This document shows positions 1,031-20,272 of a stretch of 64,000 nt of DNA, piece by piece (position 1 is the stretch's first letter; each line of letters starts with the position of its first letter). A program made the position numbers and the translations under genes. The notes below the pieces were generated by a model. The model did no database searches. It was not told where the DNA came from and worked only from the letters and a program-made list of their open reading frames with translations. Source of the stretch: an uncultured Pseudomonadota bacterium (GTDB lineage: Bacteria > Myxococcota_A > Polyangia > Fen-1088); assembly GCA_963847705.1 (NCBI GenBank), contig CAWKBC010000034.1, positions 160,001 through 224,000 on the forward strand, read 5' to 3'.

Positions 1031-2089
1031 TCAGCCGGTGGTGCGGCGGCGCGTCTGCCAGCTGTCGATGATCTCTCCCAGGATCTGGCGCAGCGAGATC
1101 TCGACCTTCCAGCCTGGAAAGTGGCTCTCGAGCTTCCTCAGGTCCGAGATGTAGCAGATGTGATCGCCGCGCCGGGGCTCGTCGACGTACTCGGTCTTGA
1201 GACGCGACCCCGAGAGCTCGGCGACCAGCTCCGCCGCCTCCAGGATGGAGCAGCTGTTCGGGCGTCCGCCGCCGATGTTGTAGACCTCGCCCGGACGAGG
1301 GGCCTCGTAGAAACGATGGATCGCCCGCAACACGTCCCGCGAGTGGATGTTGTCGCGAACCTGCTTCCCCTTGTAGCCGTAGATGCGGTAGGTGGTGCCG
1401 GTCAGCGCCGCCTTCACCAGGTACGACAAGAAGCCGTGTAGCTCGACGCCGCTGTGCTGCGGCCCGGTGAGGCAGCCCCCCCGGAACACGCCCACCTTGA
1501 GCCCGAAGTAACGCCCGTACTCCTGGGCCATGACGTCCGCCGCCACCTTCGAGGCGCCGAACAGCGAATGCAGGCAGCGATCGATCCGAAAGCTCTCGGC
1601 GATCCCGTTCCAGTCCTCCGGGCGCGCGTACTCCCAGCGGGTCGGCAGCTCCTTCAGCTCCAGCTCGTTGGGGGCGTCACCGTAGACCTTGTTGGTGCTG
1701 GTGAACGCCAGCACCGTCTCCGGCTGATGCCGCCGCACGCCCTCCAGAAAGTTGAGCGTTCCCCCGGCGTTGACGTCGAAGTCTTCGAACGGCATGCGCG
1801 CCGCCAGGTCGTGCGAAGGTTGGGCGGCGCAGTGAACGATCAGGTCGAAGCGCTGCTTGGACAGCAGGTCAAGCACCCCCTCCCGGTTGCGGATGTCCAG
1901 CTCGACGTGCTGAAAGCGCGGCGTCGCGCGCTGCAGCCGCTGCTGATTCCAGCGCGTGTCGCCGTCCGGTCCGAAGAAGACCGCGCGCATGTTGTTGTCG
2001 ACGCCCACCACGTCTGCGCCCAGCCCGTCGAAATAACCGACCGCCTCGGACCCGATGAGTCCGTTCGATCCCGTGACAAGGACCCGCAT
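1031..2089 (-). CDS. NAD-dependent nucleotide-sugar epimerase/dehydratase (CDP-paratose 2-epimerase-like)
   Basis: [39 protein letters not shown] and YNIGGG extended-SDR motifs. Confidence 0.88.
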
Positions 2090-2184
2090 GGCCGGAAGCT
2101 AACTCGACGGGTGGGCGGCGGCAAGGAATGCCGACGACGATCCTGGCCCCCCGTGCGGCAGAGGCGGTAAGCTCGCGGCGACGG

Positions 2185-3330
2185 ATGTCTTCGCACCGCC
2201 GCTTCGCGCTGGTCTGCCCCAACTACCATCCCGTGACCTGCGGCGTGGGCGACCATTCGATGCGCCTCGCCGCCGAGCTTGGCCGCCGCGGCTTCGAGGC
2301 GCGTGTCTTCACGCGCACACCCGTCGCCCCGCACCCGGAAGCGCCCGAGATCGTCGTCGTCGGTGAGAGCGGACCCACGCCCACGGTGATCGCCGAGCGC
2401 CTGCGGCGGCGAATCCTGGAGTACGCGCCCACCGACCTGATCATCCAGTACACCCCCCACATGCTCGGCGCCTGGCGGCTGGGCAGCCCCGCGATGCTGT
2501 GGTTGGCCGAGGCAGCCCGGCGACGGCGGATCAACGTCGTGCTGCTGGCGCACGAGCTGTTTCTCCCCTGGCGGCGACGGCCGGACCTCGCCCTCAGCGC
2601 GGCCATGGTCCGGGTTCAGCTGGCCGCCATGATGAAGGTGTCTGATCACGTCCTGGTAACGATGGAGACCCGGCTGGCCGAGATCGCCTGGCTGGCCAGA
2701 GCCGTGCGCCTGCGACGGCCGGCGGGTATCGTCCGCGTCGGCGCCAACGCGCTGCCTGTGACCCGCGCGCGGCGGCCCGGGCGCCTCCGGGTCGGCGTGT
2801 TCTCGACGCTGGCCAGCACCAAGCGGTTCGACGTGGTGCTCGACAGCTTCCGCCTGCTGCACGCGCGGCACCCCGAGGCCGAGCTGGTGTTGCTGGGCGA
2901 CTTCGGGTCACCCGACGACCCGCGCGTGCGCGCCCTGCACGCCGCCCTGCAGGCGCACCCGGGCCGTGCCCGCATCCGCGTCCCCGGCAAGCTGGCGCTC
3001 GACGCGATCGCCCGGGAGGTCTCCGAGCTGGACGCTTACCTGTTCCCGATGATCTCGGGAGCCAACACCCGCAGCGGGACCTTGCCCCTCGCTCTCGGTG
3101 CGGGGTTGCCCGTCGTCGCCATCAAGAGCTACGAGACCGACCCCCTGTTCGTCGACGGGGACAACCTGCTCTTCGCGCGCAGCCTCACGGGCGAGGCCTT
3201 CGCCGAACAGGTGCTCCGCCTGGTGGCCGATCCGGCGCTCGAGCTGCGGATATCGCAGGGCGCGAAAAGACTCTATGATGCGGACCTCTCTTGGGAGCGG
3301 ATCGGCGAGCAAGTGCTCTCGCAAATCTGA
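2185..3330 (+). CDS. Glycosyltransferase family 4 (GT-B)
   Basis: CGVGDHS N-terminal motif, HE motif, KRFD, SGTLPLALGAGLPVV C-terminal GT4 signature. Start is ATG 2185 (ORF opens at 2128). Confidence 0.8.
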   Translation: MSSHRRFALVCPNYHPVTCGVGDHSMRLAAELGRRGFEARVFTRTPVAPHPEAPEIVVVGESGPTPTVIAERLRRRILEYAPTDLIIQYTPHMLGAWRLGSPAMLWLAEAARRRRINVVLLAHELFLPWRRRPDLALSAAMVRVQLAAMMKVSDHVLVTMETRLAEIAWLARAVRLRRPAGIVRVGANALPVTRARRPGRLRVGVFSTLASTKRFDVVLDSFRLLHARHPEAELVLLGDFGSPDDPRVRALHAALQAHPGRARIRVPGKLALDAIAREVSELDAYLFPMISGANTRSGTLPLALGAGLPVVAIKSYETDPLFVDGDNLLFARSLTGEAFAEQVLRLVADPALELRISQGAKRLYDADLSWERIGEQVLSQI

Positions 3331-3350
3331 GGAACCCTCCTGCCCAACCG

Positions 3351-4088
3351 ATGATCTCTAAGACCGATGTGCTCTGGAGGCTGCGCCGGGTCCTCAATCG
3401 CACCGGTCTGGACGTGGTCCTCTACCGCCACACGCGCCATCCGGTGGCCCGCCGGAAACACCTCTTCTCCCATCACGGGATAGACCTGGTCCTCGACGTG
3501 GGCGCCAACGCCGGCCAGTACGGACGGTTTCTGCGAAACATCGGCTACCTCGGGCGGATCACCTCGTTCGAGCCGCTGTCATCGGCGTTCGCCGCGCTCG
3601 AGCGCACCCGGGCGGGGGATCCGCTGTGGGAGGCACAGCGGGTGGCGCTCAGCGACCGGGAGGGCTTCGCGACCCTGAACCGCGCCGGGAACTCCGAGTC
3701 GAGCTCGTTCCTTCCGATGCTGCCCGCCCACCTCGCCGCCTTTCCGGAGTCCCGCTACGTCAACACCGAGCGGGTCCCCATGACCACGCTGGCGCGGGTG
3801 GTCGCCACCGTCCCGGCCGACGCCCGGGTGTTCCTGAAGGTCGATACCCAGGGCCACGAGCGGGCCGTCCTCGAGGGCGCGGGCGCCGCCCTGGAGCGCT
3901 TCAGCGGCGTTCAGCTCGAGATGTCGATCGTCCCCTGTTACGACGGAGAGCTGCTCATGCCTGAGATGATCGCCTACATGTCCGGGCGCGGCTTCGCGCT
4001 CATGAGCCTCGAGCCCGGGGCGAGCGACCGGCGCACCGGGCAGCTCCTCCAGCTTGACGGGCTCTTCTTCCGCGCACCGCCGAGTTGA
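3351..4088 (+). CDS. FkbM family methyltransferase
   Basis: LDVGANAGQY, SFEP, LKVDTQGHE and QLDGLF motifs typical of FkbM. Confidence 0.9.
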   Translation: MISKTDVLWRLRRVLNRTGLDVVLYRHTRHPVARRKHLFSHHGIDLVLDVGANAGQYGRFLRNIGYLGRITSFEPLSSAFAALERTRAGDPLWEAQRVALSDREGFATLNRAGNSESSSFLPMLPAHLAAFPESRYVNTERVPMTTLARVVATVPADARVFLKVDTQGHERAVLEGAGAALERFSGVQLEMSIVPCYDGELLMPEMIAYMSGRGFALMSLEPGASDRRTGQLLQLDGLFFRAPPS

Positions 4089-4100
4089 CGGCGGTCGCCC

Positions 4101-5306
4101 TCATCTCGGGTCGAGCGGCGGCACCAGCGCGTTCAGAGGTCCCAGCAGGGCCGCCTGGTTGGCGGGCAGGTCGTAGTGGGCGCGCCTGAGCCGCTCGGCA
4201 GGGACGTGCTGGCTGCGGTGCGCGTCGGGGAGATTCCACAGCCTGAGCAGCCGGGTGACACCTTCCTCGACCCGCTCGTTGCCCCACCAGGCGACGTAGT
4301 CCGTCATGCCGGAGAGGTGAGCGATCGAGCTGTCCAGCGGCGCGTGCGCGAAGAGCGGCCGCGCCGCGAGCAGGTAGCTGCTCAGCTTGGTCGGGAACGA
4401 CGTCTGGCGGAGAACCGCCGCGCGCCGAGAGAAAGGGTAGTTGAGGTAGAGCGCGAAACAGCGGCTCAGGCGCTCGATGGCGTGGCGCTCGTCGAGGTGG
4501 CCGGTGACCTCGACGTCGATCCGGCCGCCGACCTCGGCGCGCAGGCGCTCGCCCGGCCCCTGTCCGATCATGACGATGCGCCCACGCGCGCCTACCCGGC
4601 CCGCGGCCTCTTCGAGCACTCTGGCCAGCAGGGGCAGCTGATCGTAGCCGTAGGTGTTGCCCATGACGCCGATCTCCAGCGACCCACCGGCCAGGTGGGC
4701 CGGCCGCTCGAGGACCGGCTCGGCGATGCCGCGGTGAACGATGGTGGAGGCGATTCCGTATCGCTCCCGGTATCTGCGGGCCATGCCCTCGCAGACCACG
4801 TCCACCGAACGAGCCCGGCGCAGCGCGTACCCGAAGTCGCGTTCGATGAGCGGCAGCAGCGCGACATGCCGCCGCGACATCAGGGCCACACCGAACGCGG
4901 GGTCGTCGTGAACCGAGAGGTGGACGGGCAGTGACGGCCGGCTCAGCAGCCGCGCCGCCACGTGCACCATCGCCCCGTGCATGACGATCCAGAGCGCGCG
5001 CGCCTGGCGCTGCCGCGCGACGACCTCGACCTCCCGCGCCAGACGCCACGACAGCAGGCCGTCGATGGTCACCGAGCGCGTGGCCAGGCGGCTTGCCAGC
5101 ACCGACGGGAGCCCGAGCGAGCCCCGTCGCAGCCCGATCTCCAGCGGACCCGCCGCGCCGGTCATGGAGGGAGAGGCCCAGAGCACCCGCTGACGCACCT
5201 CGCCCGGCAAGAGGCTCCGCAGGATCACGGCGCCTCCACCGCCCGCCGCCGGCGGGTAGTCCGTGAGCAGCAACAACGGGGTCTCGGCGGTGTATCGCTC
5301 CAACAT
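4101..5306 (-). CDS. Putative GT-B glycosyltransferase-like protein
   Basis: HDD motif, SFPTKLSSYL GT4-like signature, context among glycosyltransferases. Start uncertain; ATG 5306 chosen to avoid overlap. Confidence 0.65.
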   Translation of the reverse strand: MLERYTAETPLLLLTDYPPAAGGGGAVILRSLLPGEVRQRVLWASPSMTGAAGPLEIGLRRGSLGLPSVLASRLATRSVTIDGLLSWRLAREVEVVARQRQARALWIVMHGAMVHVAARLLSRPSLPVHLSVHDDPAFGVALMSRRHVALLPLIERDFGYALRRARSVDVVCEGMARRYRERYGIASTIVHRGIAEPVLERPAHLAGGSLEIGVMGNTYGYDQLPLLARVLEEAAGRVGARGRIVMIGQGPGERLRAEVGGRIDVEVTGHLDERHAIERLSRCFALYLNYPFSRRAAVLRQTSFPTKLSSYLLAARPLFAHAPLDSSIAHLSGMTDYVAWWGNERVEEGVTRLLRLWNLPDAHRSQHVPAERLRRAHYDLPANQAALLGPLNALVPPLDPR

Positions 5307-5340
5307 CAGCGGCGGCACGATAGCACGGGCGAAAATCCCC

Positions 5341-6203
5341 TCAGCCGAACTGTGGGGCCAGCCGCGCGCGCTCAATCGCGTCGGAGGGCGCGTCGGTCGG
5401 AAGGGGAACATCGGGACGGGAGAGCCGGGCCAGCCAGCCGCGGTCGAGCGGCCGCTCGAGGTCGCTCACCGCGACTGCGGCCGCCGTGGTCTGCGCCTTG
5501 TCGCCGATGGCGTCACCGACGCCGACCGCCCAGCCAGCCAGCAGCAGGGCCAGGCGCGTCGCGGTCGAAGCGCTGTAGGTGTAGAGCGCGCAGCGGGGAC
5601 CGGCGAGGCGCCGCGCCTCCGAGAACGCGGCCACCGTCCAGAGGGCCGGGTTCGCGCGCGGCGAGAAGGGATCCCAGTAGATGACGTCGGCGCGAGACCT
5701 CTGCCGGGCCAGCGTCTCCAGGAGATCGCCGCGGACCAGGCGCCAGTGCGTCCGCGCGGTCTCGTGCGCATCGTGGGCCAGGAGGGCGCGGGCGGCGTCG
5801 GCGGGCTCGCCGCGCCAGCCGAAGGGTTCGCCGGCCGCCAGCGCCAGCTCGAGCGCGCCGAGCTCGCGTTCGAAGCTGACGAGCTCGAGGAGCGCCGCGC
5901 TGTCCGGCAGCCCCTCGGATGCGCACCGCGCCGCCAGCGCGTTCGAGCCAGCACCCAGGCCCACATCGAACAGGACCAGGCGACCGGCACCCTGCCCTGC
6001 CGCCTCCCTTGCCACCAACCTCTCCGGAGCCGCGACTGCCGGACGTAGAGCTGCTCGGCCTCGACGAGAGGACCGACGCCCGGGTGCATGACCTCGCCGT
6101 CGGCGAGGCTGCGCATCGCCAGCGCGCCGCCGCGCGTCCGGACGATTTCGTGGCTCACGCGCGGGTGGCTGGCGCGCTCCTGGCTCGGGCGGTCGTCGCT
6201 CAC
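5341..6203 (-). CDS. MnmC/MnmD-like SAM-dependent methyltransferase, split by a 1-bp frameshift near 6025-6030
   Basis: The N-terminus (MHPGVGPLVEAEQLYV) lies in the 5466..6203 frame. DVGLGAGSN, ELVSFE, YWDPFSPRANPALWT and TYSA...RLALLLAGW lie in the 5341..6252 frame. The start overlaps the tgt stop (GTGA). Confidence 0.75.
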
Positions 6204-7360
6204 GCGCGCACCCTGGCGTGCTCGTGGCGATCGATCTCGGCCAGTCGCTCACGCGCGAAGCTGGCGTAGACGCCTTTGTCGATCGCCTCGCGCGCCTGTC
6301 GCATCAGCTCCAGGTAGTGGTGGAGGTTGTGGATGCTGAGGAGGCGCGGCCCGAGCGGCTCGCTGCACTTGAAGAGGTGGTGCAGGTAGCTGCGACTGAA
6401 GGTCCGGCAGGTCGAGCAGGCGCAGCGCGCGTCGAGGGCCTCGTCGACCGCCGCGTTGGCCCCGCGCGTGACGCGCACGCGCCCCGTCCAGGTGAAGGCC
6501 GTCCCCTGCCAGGCCAGGTGTGTCGGCAGCACGCAGTCGAACATGTCGACGCCGCAGCCGATGGCGTAGAGGAGATCGGGCGGCGTGCCGACGCCCATCA
6601 GGTACCGCGGCTTCGCCTCCGGCAGGAGATCGACCGCCAGGCCCGTGACCTCCTCGCGCTCGGCCCGCGTGTCCCCCACCGCCAGGCCGCCGATCGCGAA
6701 GCCGTCGAAGGAGTGCTCGGTCAGGAAGGCGGCCGATTGCCGCCGCAGCGCCGGGACCAGGCCCCCCTGCACGATGGCGAACAGCGCCTGCGCCGGGTTC
6801 TTGCGCGCCGCCAGGCTGCGCAGCGCCCAGCGGTGCGTCCGCTCCATGGCCGCCCGCACGGCCGCCTCCTCGGCCGTCGACGGGACGCACTCGTCGAGCG
6901 CCATCATGATGTCCGACCCCAGCGCCGTCTGCATGTCGATCGACGTCTCGGGGGTGAGGTGATGGCGGCGGCTGTCGATGTAGCTGCGAAAGCGCGCGCC
7001 GCTCTCGTCGATGGTGCGGTCGGCCGGCAGCGAGAAGATCTGATAGCCGCCCGAGTCGGTGAGCACGGCCCGCGGCCAGCGCATGAAGGCGTGCAGACCG
7101 CCGACCCGCCGGAACAGCTCGGGCCCCGGCCGAAGCAGCAGGTGATAGGTGTTGGCCAGCAAGATCGGCGCGTCGAGCGTCAGCAGATCGTCCGGTGTCA
7201 GCCCGGTCACCGTGGCGCGGGTCCCGACTGGCATGAAGACGGGCGTCTCGATCGCTCCGCGCGACGTCAGCAGCGTCCCCCGCCGCGCGCGCGAGCCGGG
7301 ATCGCTGGCGCCGCGAAGGAAGCGCAGCGGGGAGGTGGGGGGTGGGTCGGCTGTTTCCAA
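6200..7360 (-). CDS. tgt: tRNA-guanine transglycosylase family protein (divergent)
   Basis: TPVFMPVGT, LANTYHL, TDSGGYQ, MALDEC, IVQGG, GGLAVG, YLMGVG, DMFDCVLPT and a Zn site CxCxxC...H. Start uncertain (TTG 7360 or 7474). Confidence 0.9.
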   Translation of the reverse strand: METADPPPTSPLRFLRGASDPGSRARRGTLLTSRGAIETPVFMPVGTRATVTGLTPDDLLTLDAPILLANTYHLLLRPGPELFRRVGGLHAFMRWPRAVLTDSGGYQIFSLPADRTIDESGARFRSYIDSRRHHLTPETSIDMQTALGSDIMMALDECVPSTAEEAAVRAAMERTHRWALRSLAARKNPAQALFAIVQGGLVPALRRQSAAFLTEHSFDGFAIGGLAVGDTRAEREEVTGLAVDLLPEAKPRYLMGVGTPPDLLYAIGCGVDMFDCVLPTHLAWQGTAFTWTGRVRVTRGANAAVDEALDARCACSTCRTFSRSYLHHLFKCSEPLGPRLLSIHNLHHYLELMRQAREAIDKGVYASFARERLAEIDRHEHARVRA

Positions 7361-7521
7361 GCGGGCGCGACAGGCTACAACATTGCTACCGTCGTCGATC
7401 GCGCCGAGGGTCGAGGTCGAGGGGGATCCACGCTCAGCTCCAGCGGCGCCGTCCGCTGGAGCGAGGCTCGGCAATCGCGTCGAAAAGCAGGAGGGCGAAC
7501 AGCGCCGACATCAGGGGGCGC

Positions 7522-8568
7522 TCACCGGCCGGCGCCCCGCAGCAGGCGGCGAACCTCCAGGGCCACCCGTCCCATGGGACGCCGGATGACGTCCGGTAGA
7601 CGGCCCACCATCATCATCGCACGCAGGTCGGGGCGAGTGACCATGGCCTCGGCGCGCGAGAGGACGGCGGCCACCTCGTCGCCATGGTTGTTCTCGAGCA
7701 GCGCGAACACCAGCGATCCCACCGTTCGCGCATATTGCGGTTCGACGAAGGATCGGAACTCGCGCAGCGCTGGATCCTCGAGATACCGCTGCAGGACGAG
7801 CTCCGACTGGCGCAGGGCACGGAGACGCCCTTGGCTCGATCCCCAGGAGCGGGTCTCGGACTGGTTGTGGACGCGGTAGCGCGTCAGCCGGCGCGGCTCG
7901 TAGTAGGCCCTCGCGCCGGTGCGCGCGGAGAGGTACGTGATCCAGAGGTCGTAGAAGGTCCCTACCCCGTCGGGAAAATCGGTCCAGTCGATCGCCGACT
8001 TCCTGAACAGCGCGGCCATCGCGGCGGGGACCACCCGATGCAACACCACCTCGGCCAGAAACCGATCGATCGGGCCGCGTGGCAGGGCGCTGCGGTACCA
8101 GAAGCGCGTATTCTGATCGCTGAGCTCCGGGTTCAGGCTGCCGTCCTCGTTCATCACGTGATGATCGGAGAAGGCCACGCTCATCGAATCGTCGGCCTCC
8201 AGAGCCGGAACGAGGCTGGCCAAGAAGTCCGGCTCCCAGGTGTCGTCGTCGTGAATCGTGGCCACGTACTTCCCGTTGGCCGCGGCCAGCGCCGCCCAGA
8301 TGTTGGCGCCCATCCCGACATTCTTGGGGTTCCGTCGGTATTTGACCCCGCGCGCCTCGTACCTCGAGACGACCGCCCCGTAGACGTCCTCGGTGCTGGC
8401 GTCATCGCTCACCACGATCTCGACGCGGGGGTAGGTCTGAGCCAGGGCGCTCTCGATCGCGTCCGAGAGGAAGCGCACGCGATTGAAGGTCGGGATCACC
8501 ACCGTGACGAGCGGAGCCTCCTCGGCAACCGCCACCGCACCTGCGTCTCGGGTTTCGGCCAAGGTCAC
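7522..8568 (-). CDS. Glycosyltransferase family 2
   Basis: VTVVIPTFNR, VSDDASTE, HDDD (DxD) and YRVH motifs. Confidence 0.9.
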   Translation of the reverse strand: MTLAETRDAGAVAVAEEAPLVTVVIPTFNRVRFLSDAIESALAQTYPRVEIVVSDDASTEDVYGAVVSRYEARGVKYRRNPKNVGMGANIWAALAAANGKYVATIHDDDTWEPDFLASLVPALEADDSMSVAFSDHHVMNEDGSLNPELSDQNTRFWYRSALPRGPIDRFLAEVVLHRVVPAAMAALFRKSAIDWTDFPDGVGTFYDLWITYLSARTGARAYYEPRRLTRYRVHNQSETRSWGSSQGRLRALRQSELVLQRYLEDPALREFRSFVEPQYARTVGSLVFALLENNHGDEVAAVLSRAEAMVTRPDLRAMMMVGRLPDVIRRPMGRVALEVRRLLRGAGR

Positions 8569-18139: not shown

Positions 18140-19420
18140 TCATATGCGTCGCGCGGCGCTGCGTTCCGGGTGCTCGAAGGCGGAGGCAAAGGGTTCGAGC
18201 TCGGCGTCGGTCATTCCGAGTGAACGGCCCTCGGCGCGCCAGCCAGCCACCACGTGCTCGACGTGGGCCGCGACCTCCTTGGCGCGAGCCCGCGAAATCC
18301 TGAAATATGGAGCGACGGAGAGCAGTGCCTCGATCGTCGCCTCCGGGCCGGTCTCGGGCGAGATCCAGGTTTTGAGCTCACGCACGCGATCGGGGAACGG
18401 GTTCAGGTCGAAAGCCGGGGCCAGCCGCCACTGGCCGTAACCAGCGTGCAGGAAACCGTGGTTGAGTAGATGGTCGTCGACGTTGGTGATCAAGATGGAG
18501 AACGCCATCCGTCGCCACAGCTCTTCGATGTCCGCCTGCGCCGCAGCTCCGTAGATACGAAGCGCGTCGACGATTTCCGTATAGGCGTGCTCGCCTGGAT
18601 CTCCCGGCTCCGCGCCGAGCATGGTCGCGGCCGATACGTAAAGCACCCGGCCTCCTCCATCTGCTCGATCGAAGCGCTTGATCAGAGCGACCGGGACACC
18701 GTCGCTATCAATGAGGCGTGCGTCGGCCGCCTCGATTCCTGCCGCCCTCGCCAGATGCATCGCGAGAACCTCGCCTTTCGTCACCGCGCGCTCATCCGAA
18801 ACGCTCGGGAACTTGCCGATGGACAACCGGCCATTCTCGTCCACGACCGTACACTTCGGCCGCAGGCCGCCGAGCGAGGTACCCCGTCCTCGCAGGTTCG
18901 CTAGATCCGCCGCGGTTTCGCTGTTCGTCTCAACCGAGCGACTCGCGGCCGCGAGACTGGCGAGCTCGATCAGCGGCGGCGCTGTGCGGCGACCTGGCTC
19001 CGAAGCCCGCTGGAAGCTTCCTTCCTCGTCTTGAAAGCGAAGGGCACCTACGCGACTCGCGTCGTCCACCTCCAACAGGAAGCCGAGGTCATTCAGGGGC
19101 CGCGGGTCGAATTCCGTCCCAGAGCGACGAGCTTCCTGCATGCGCTTCGCGTGGTCGCGGAGGATGACACGTCGGCCCCAACCGTCTGGTTCCGTGTCGG
19201 CGATTGAGGAGTGGAAGATCGAGCCGTCGCGAGTCTTTTTGTGAAACTGCGGCCCGGCAACGAGTTGCAGTGCCGGGTCGATCGAAAATCGGTCCCGAGC
19301 CGACAGCCAGCTGGCGTCGTACTCGAAGGCGGCGCTCGCTCGCGCTCCGTCCGCGCTGTATCGGATCATTCCGATCAAGCGCGGCTCGTCGCCCACGAAG
19401 ACCTTGATGGTGCGTCTCAT
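18140..19420 (-). CDS. hipA: HipA-family kinase toxin
   Basis: N-terminal FEYD..WL...FSIDP.L domain, P-loop SLGGLRPK, KRFDR, NVDDHLLNHGF and LAPAFDLNP. Confidence 0.9.
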   Translation of the reverse strand: MRRTIKVFVGDEPRLIGMIRYSADGARASAAFEYDASWLSARDRFSIDPALQLVAGPQFHKKTRDGSIFHSSIADTEPDGWGRRVILRDHAKRMQEARRSGTEFDPRPLNDLGFLLEVDDASRVGALRFQDEEGSFQRASEPGRRTAPPLIELASLAAASRSVETNSETAADLANLRGRGTSLGGLRPKCTVVDENGRLSIGKFPSVSDERAVTKGEVLAMHLARAAGIEAADARLIDSDGVPVALIKRFDRADGGGRVLYVSAATMLGAEPGDPGEHAYTEIVDALRIYGAAAQADIEELWRRMAFSILITNVDDHLLNHGFLHAGYGQWRLAPAFDLNPFPDRVRELKTWISPETGPEATIEALLSVAPYFRISRARAKEVAAHVEHVVAGWRAEGRSLGMTDAELEPFASAFEHPERSAARRI

Positions 19421-19749
19421 AGAGGGACCGGCTCCCTCTTGGGACGCACGCGCTTCGGAACGCGCTGCTCATCGAGCAGCAGGCCCTGTTCGTCGCTGCT
19501 CGCATCAACCAAATCGCCTAGCGCATCGCCGAATCCAAGGACGAACAACGCCATCGCGTACACCCCCATCGACACGGTCGGGTCCCCTTTTTCGAGGCGC
19601 ACGTATGTGCTCTTGGCGACGCCCAAGCGTTCCGACATCATCGCGGTCGTCAGATGACGTTTGCGGCGCGCAAGCGCGAGGTCCGATCCGAATTTCTTTA
19701 GGGATCGCCGGACCTTGGCCGGAAGGACGTCGTGAACGGATGAGCGCAT
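19417..19749 (-). CDS. XRE-family HTH antitoxin (HipB-like)
   Basis: ARRKRHLT...ERLGVAKSTYVRLEKGDP HTH. Overlaps the hipA start by 4 bp. Confidence 0.88.
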   Translation of the reverse strand: MRSSVHDVLPAKVRRSLKKFGSDLALARRKRHLTTAMMSERLGVAKSTYVRLEKGDPTVSMGVYAMALFVLGFGDALGDLVDASSDEQGLLLDEQRVPKRVRPKREPVPL

Positions 19750-19798: not shown

Positions 19799-20198
19799 CT
19801 ACCTTACGGACGGTACAGCGCTAGCCCCAAAAGGTCGCTGTTCTTGAGGCGGCGGCGCAGCTCGACGTATTCTTCGACGCGCCTGTTCTCGGAGTCGGTA
19901 GGACCTTTGCTCTCCGCTGTGGGCTGCGGCACCACCCACCGATGGGTCGCGCTTCCGCTCCCGGTCAGGGTTCAGCTGAGGAGACCACTCCCAGCGATCG
20001 CGGTCCCCATTCAGGGCCATCGCCACCTGGCCGCTGACAAGTCAGGGTGGACGCGGTGGCTACATGTTGGCGAACCGACTGTCGTTTCGACCCAAGACCG
20101 ATGGATTTACTTCACCGGTACTTCAAGGCTCTGGCGAGAGCGATTCAGCCGTTCTCCCCCGACTGGAACCAGCCGACGATTCCAGCGACTTAGGTCGG

Positions 20199-20272
20199 TC
20201 GGGGCGAGAGGATTTGAACCTCCGACATTCTGCTCCCAAAGCAGACGCGCTACCAGGCTGCGCCACGCCCCG
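20199..20272 (-). tRNA. tRNA-Pro (anticodon TGG), CCA not encoded
   Basis: Minus strand reads cggggcgtggcgcagcctggtagcgcgtctgctttgggagcagaatgtcggaggttcaaatcctctcgccccga. It has acceptor stem cggggcg/cgccccg, a D loop, anticodon loop tt-tgg-ga and T loop ttcaaat. Confidence 0.97.

Follow-up and report, generated by a model that had tools for sequence, protein, structure and literature searches.

A second tRNA-guanine transglycosylase (TGT) paralogue, coupled to an MnmC2-like methyltransferase, is encoded in the 64,000-nucleotide stretch of DNA analysed here (the window), which comes from an uncultured bacterium of the Polyangia. The pair is a real, conserved and uncharacterized variant of the TGT system, present here in split form; its architecture is in print, its function is not. 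To our knowledge, the general view of bacterial TGTs is that they read UGU strictly and feed one product, queuosine. The best explanation of the pair is a two-enzyme module that would operate apart from the normal queuosine pathway. (i) The extra TGT would swap preQ1 for guanine in an RNA loop other than the usual U33-G34-U35 site. (ii) The coupled MnmC2-like enzyme would then N-methylate the RNA-bound aminomethyl group, yielding N-methyl-preQ1 in RNA. (iii) The site would be one that the canonical TGT and QueA do not serve, the likeliest being G34 of a tRNA in which position 35 is not U, such as tRNA-Cys(GCA) or tRNA-Ser(GCU); the naming of these two tRNAs is speculation built on assumed residue roles. 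Insertion of preQ1 at a non-UGU guanine, probably G34 of a tRNA, followed by N-methylation is given a probability of about 0.45. That the pair makes methyl-preQ1 in RNA, at whatever site, seems somewhat more probable than not. From sequence we infer base exchange activity, preQ1 as the base and methylation after insertion. An earlier note on this DNA had proposed the same kind of pathway. None of the three outcomes that it named as damaging to its proposal is borne out by the genomes: a canonical tgt exists as well, the linkage is conserved, and complementation of mnmC is unlikely. Only two of its four diagnostic substitutions extend to the whole clade, and the pairing had already been printed.

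The features of the locus are collected in table 1. The TTG start of the window tgt is the same codon in all eight same-genus sequences, most of which also keep the 12-base upstream element; a consensus scan upstream of tgt found no full promoter. Against TIGR00430, the model for the bacterial, Q34-forming Tgt, the protein scores 433.1 bits, above the curated cut-off of 306.75, and PF01702 is its only Pfam domain. The gene pair exists as the earlier note described it, the tgt stop codon sharing four bases with the methyltransferase start. Polysaccharide genes flank the pair (window 1031-5411 and 7522-8568: an epimerase, GT4 and GT2 glycosyltransferases and an FkbM methyltransferase), and these neighbours are not kept beside it in other loci. 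Elsewhere in the window (18140-19749, minus strand) a HipA/YjjJ-family toxin is encoded with an HTH antitoxin upstream, near tRNA-Pro (20197-20272).

Table 1. Features of the paired genes, in window coordinates.
Feature	Position	Strand	Details
Second tRNA-guanine transglycosylase paralogue (tgt)	6200..7360	-	TTG 7360 to TGA 6200; 386 aa
Conserved 12-base element	7372..7383	-	Ends 11 bases before the tgt start codon; probably an extended -10 promoter box
MnmC2-like methyltransferase gene, 5' part	6025..6203	-	GTG start at 6203 overlaps the tgt stop by 4 bases
Methyltransferase gene, 3' part, other frame	5341..6024	-	SAM-binding motif; Glu101/Asp178/Lys236 equivalents; PF05430 match

The methyltransferase gene is broken in this assembly, which near 6025 lacks one base that all seven same-genus loci have. 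The start overlap was correctly seen in the earlier note, which missed this shift: the frame opened at the GTG codon holds only the first approximately 58 methyltransferase residues, and the SAM motif and PF05430 match lie in another frame (5341-6252). The deletion itself is what speaks for a true pseudogene in the window strain, whatever the rest of the clade does. We consider that unlikely, and an assembly or sequencing error is the probable cause: among 28 adjacent orthologues, 27 keep a single frame, and the one that does not comes from an assembly in which the tgt is fragmented too; the identity of the two halves to an intact orthologue is 84-96%; and the canonical tgt of the same assembly, beside queA (G000:C27:887778-888813, L139), is frameshifted too. 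An estimate of the frameshift rate, 3 in about 6,400 overlapping codons, is too small to be usable. Among the sequencing runs, none contained more than 16% of the words, and the four runs examined represent related strains only.

The window TGT is an additional copy. A canonical tgt with the PTRNARNG motif, which the earlier note had proposed to look for, adjoins queA on contig C27 of the same genome (G000). At least two TGT matches are present in all 20 genomes reached through clade loci, and in each of the 13 such genomes that were read the other copy has R286 and R289. Among 61 relatives, 17 are carriers; every one has a further TGT match, canonical in 10 of 10 checked. The TGT phylogeny that had also been suggested places the paralogue on one branch in two trees, with the methyltransferase linkage kept. 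In the first tree, a quick search, all 40 paralogue rows fall on one side of a branch (SH-aLRT 100, against 52 of the 104 canonical rows); in the second, 31 of 31 group together (SH-like 98, against 54 rows). With the bacterial Tgt (TIGR00430; Z. mobilis 1q2r, T. maritima 2ash) the window TGT shares the fold, D102 and D280, the purine and preQ1 pocket, the zinc site and a score above the cut-off. It differs in its separate branch, its status as a second copy, its replaced R286 and R289, its position away from queA and its tie to a methyltransferase. A third TGT paralogue branch, with 11 rows and a support of 99, was also seen (L091, L209, L211, L213, L215, L216, L218, L221, L222, L224, L227); its members keep R286 and R289 and have Glu or Lys at 127 and Ser or Gly at 290. 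More distant TGT-superfamily genes occur in three relatives, one a strong DpdA match (L130) and two weakly TgtA/DpdA-like (L128, L129).

The nearest named relatives of the window TGT belong to the Polyangia and Myxococcota, and cultured Anaeromyxobacter strains carry the fused form. Distant carriers of both domains are found in the Oligoflexia, Bdellovibrionales, Opitutaceae, Spirochaetes and Binatia, and also in Riflebacteria and Chthoniobacteraceae. The distribution is patchy, since no close relative of the module turned up in 110 further high-quality genomes from the phylum (best identity 54%), and no second carrier was seen in a 91-genome sample of the phylum of another carrier (G078): two TGT matches occurred in G078 alone, and two single matches in long frames do not belong to this clade. 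Two TGT matches are found in roughly 45-50 of these 110 genomes, almost none of which has this methyltransferase. Searches for the fused form in mobile elements returned 20 phage records and 73 plasmid records, none covering 80% of it, and it was absent from the 50 viral loci found in viral collections.

Coupling of the two genes was assessed in 39 clade loci, 38 of them distinct (L001 and L124 are identical). The methyltransferase lies directly downstream in 28, of which 22 have the same four-base overlap, and is fused to the TGT in four. Six loci are without it; of the genomes concerned, three encode it at another place and three contain a further clade copy that is paired. Conservation of the linkage, which the earlier note had proposed to test, extends beyond these loci and there often takes the form of fusion: of the 120 best longer homologues, 119 have both Pfam domains (PF01702 and PF05430), and so do 120 of 120 distant ones. 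In the set of 61 relatives, 17 of 17 genomes with the divergent TGT have a strong PF05430 match (E below 1e-9) and 0 of 44 others do, although these are not independent events because the genomes are kin. Of the 44, 39 were read at the motif, four were judged by identity or E-value and one has no TGT match. No conserved third gene accompanies the pair in 42 loci. No riboswitch or other Rfam RNA was detected in 15 clade loci apart from one tRNA, and a tRNA gene lies near the pair in only 1 of 41. Three genomes (G071, G074 and G075; L011/L131, L014/L132 and L015/L133) encode the divergent TGT twice, once paired with the methyltransferase and once alone, in addition to the canonical gene. These unpaired extra copies count against the best reading.

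Residues are numbered as in Z. mobilis TGT, to which the window protein was aligned and compared in a residue tally. The window TGT retains D102, D156, C158, V233, D280 and the zinc site and carries K52T, R286H, R289W, N290Q and E235D; the earlier note had read the intact catalytic, base-pocket and zinc positions, and the changes at 52, 286, 289 and 235, correctly. We take K52, R286 and R289 to be the residues that read U35 of the U33-G34-U35 site. In a wider tally of 137 diverse TGT/methyltransferase fusions, D102, S103, D156, C158, Q203, G230, L231, A232, V233, E235, D267, D280 and the four zinc ligands are invariant. Arginine survives once at 286 (Gln in 86, Ala in 39) and once at 289 (Gln in 122); at position 290, 96 fusions have Arg and 40 have Gln, and position 52 is Lys or Arg in all 137. 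The clade loci keep R286 in 3 of 39 and R289 in 1 of 39, against both arginines in 104 of 104 canonical sequences, a grouping partly defined by these residues; their loss holds across the tree-defined clade. Two of the four substitutions first thought diagnostic, those at 286 and 289, are thus clade-wide. K52T and E235D were rejected as clade markers and belong to the myxobacterial sub-branch only, since the fusions uniformly have K/R52 and E235; one canonical TGT (L230) has E235D as well. The divergent TGT has gained conserved basic residues at 240, 304 and 336. With the numbering shifted by a constant 16, the last of these would match E. coli R320, which is described as a contact to the tRNA stem (PMC13416341).

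Passages of PMC5699537 assign D102, S103, D156, Q203 and G230 to the purine pocket, D280 to the role of nucleophile and L231 and A232 to preQ1 specificity. All of these are invariant in the fusions, so that the divergent TGT is most naturally taken for an active enzyme of the preQ1 type. Three other identities were discarded. A non-catalytic QTRT2-like subunit does not agree with active-site residues that are invariant and not degenerate. Archaeal TgtA, which modifies G15, is ruled out by the TIGR00432 score (108.6 against a cut-off of 350 bits), by Leu/Ala instead of Val/Val at 231/232 and by the presence of PF01702 only, where TgtA has a PUA domain. The DNA transglycosylase DpdA is ruled out by the lack of an NF041059 match at E<=0.001 and, as regards a dpd gene cluster, of any conserved third gene in the 42 loci.

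Outside the myxobacteria UGU reading could survive, given R290 in 96 of the 137 fusions and K/R52 in all of them. The module might then compete with QueA and give all GUN tRNAs, or some of them, N-methyl-preQ1 instead of queuosine at G34. The invariant D267 would suit such a role, as would the fold, the TGT part of a modelled fused member being predicted to lie within 1.2-1.6 A of Z. mobilis TGT. We nevertheless regard this as unlikely: the arginine pair universal in the canonical sequences tallied is lost throughout the clade, myxobacterial members lose K52 too, and carriers keep queA and queG. For a non-UGU site, as in the preferred reading, a change of Arg to Gln with Lys52 kept would suit cytosine at 35, if the U35 role assumed above is right, and so point to the Cys and Ser tRNAs named above. 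The window's genome has both of them, each with U33.

Supply of the base was examined through the queuosine genes. The window's genome has queA, queC and queG; queF was not found in it, at a completeness of 85% and with rpoB also missing. Both queC and queF are lacking in 8 of 19 clade genomes. Such carriers presumably import preQ1, since queA is kept in five of five carriers tested; the need for imported preQ1 is a weak point of the preQ1 reading. The window's genome also encodes a second, divergent QueA-like protein with a short repeated insert (G000:C11:65642-66802, L205), whose gene follows a short-chain dehydrogenase and just precedes tRNA-Glu and an integrase-like ORF. Second QueA-like copies are likewise present in G071 and G079.

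The partner enzyme resembles MnmC2. The best PDB match of an intact orthologue is Aquifex MnmC2 (3vyw, E 1.3e-11), and alignments to 3vyw and E. coli MnmC show that the SAM loop and the equivalents of Glu101, Asp178 and Lys236 are retained. Among the 137 fusions, the Asp178 equivalent is Asp in 136, the Glu101 equivalent Glu or Asp in 135 and the Lys236 equivalent Lys or Arg in 127. The roles of these residues are described in passages of PMC3648344, where Lys236 is listed as RNA-binding. Scores against the MnmC2/MnmD model NF033855 lie below the curated cut-off of 136 bits, at 54-88 bits for eight of eight intact methyltransferases and 64 bits for the window 3' frame. The enzyme therefore shares with MnmC2/MnmD (Aquifex 3vyw; E. 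coli MnmC N-terminal domain) its motif, its key residues and its closest solved structure, but differs in falling under the family threshold and in occurring in a family of genomes where MnmE and MnmG were not found.

These low scores would be compatible with another product altogether. The methyltransferase might act on free preQ1 or another amine, or the TGT half might mainly dock RNA and present a base for methylation. The same view could draw on the de novo preQ1 genes not found in 8 of 19 carriers, and on the model of the fused member, in which two confident domains are joined by a low-confidence linker (pLDDT 93, pTM 0.63) and their orientation is unreliable. It is rather unlikely in view of the two catalytic aspartates and the whole pocket, which are invariant, unlike those of the non-catalytic QTRT2, and of the basic residue that most fusions keep at the RNA-binding Lys236 position.

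A more conventional role would be that of an ordinary MnmC2/MnmD finishing mnm5s2U34 and merely travelling with a spare tgt. The window methyltransferase is the only PF05430 match in its genome, MnmA is present in five of five genomes tested, MnmG occurs in 8 of 36 carriers overall, and a preprint lists the fused form in an mnm5s2U context (bioRxiv 10.1101/2023.12.21.572861). Within the family of the window's genome, searches of 37 genomes, 16 carriers of the pair among them, found MnmE in 0 of 37 and MnmG in 0 of 37. Most other families of the class yielded both, as did 9 of 14 controls. Without MnmEG we know of no source of nm5s2U, so the usual substrate of the methyltransferase is probably absent from this family and completion of mnm5s2U, or complementation of mnmC, is unlikely. 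Among the 44 relatives without the divergent tgt, 16 have an mnmG match and none of these has the methyltransferase. MnmM was found in 1 of 80 genomes, and one carrier has it; MnmL was found in 0 of 5. The conventional role is accordingly very improbable, and it was one of the outcomes that the earlier note had named against its own reading; the family-wide absence of mnmE and mnmG speaks against it, and the carriers with MnmG leave it some ground. Family f1 of the window's genome has apparently undergone a wide loss of xm5U34 synthesis: MnmE and MnmG were found in 0 of its 37 genomes and, in a sample of the phylum, in 55 of 111, with MnmA kept. In two Riflebacteria genomes, two full-length mnmG copies lie downstream of mnmE (G076:C10:54913-62064 and G077:C243:4218-11663).

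Two published systems stand close to the module. The first is a TGT/MnmC2 fusion, listed in one sentence of 'Alternate routes to mnm5s2U synthesis in Gram-positive bacteria' (bioRxiv 10.1101/2023.12.21.572861). It has the same domains, PF01702 and MnmC2, of which the window pair is the split form. In the main-text passages of that preprint the fusion is listed without a function, its status as a second paralogue, the changed arginines or the fact that carriers can lack MnmEG. The earlier note had known of no description of the pathway for bacterial RNA; this stands for its function in the literature searched, and fails for the pairing, which the preprint already lists as a fusion. The second system produces N-methyl-preQ1 (mdPreQ1) in phage DNA by means of DpdA2 and DpdM (bioRxiv 10.1101/2023.04.13.536721). 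As described there, it follows the same logic with the same proposed base, preQ1 insertion and then N-methylation. It differs in acting on DNA and not RNA and in the unrelated, DUF3109-family fold of DpdM, and the window TGT has no DpdA match. General background is available in parts of PMC10164549, PMC6165067, PMC8136771 and PMC10723273. Neither a functional study of a TGT/methyltransferase pair nor natural methyl-preQ1 in RNA was found in the literature searched, which covered few subscription-journal papers.

Tentatively, and at slightly under even odds, the module could add to queuosine and archaeosine a third type of RNA modification based on 7-deazaguanine: preQ1 would be inserted by a TGT that no longer targets UGU and then capped to N-methyl-preQ1 by a recruited MnmC2. 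Its hosts may include myxobacteria, Bdellovibrio relatives, Verrucomicrobia, spirochaetes, Binatia and Riflebacteria. Placed at G34 of G-C-N tRNAs (Cys, Ser), N-methyl-preQ1 may be the counterpart of queuosine for the NGY split codon boxes. If true, this would add a new nucleoside to the list of RNA modifications and give a function to the listed fusion, and thousands of entries annotated as plain Tgt would have to be corrected. A TGT with another recognition sequence would also be an orthogonal tool for site-specific RNA labelling.
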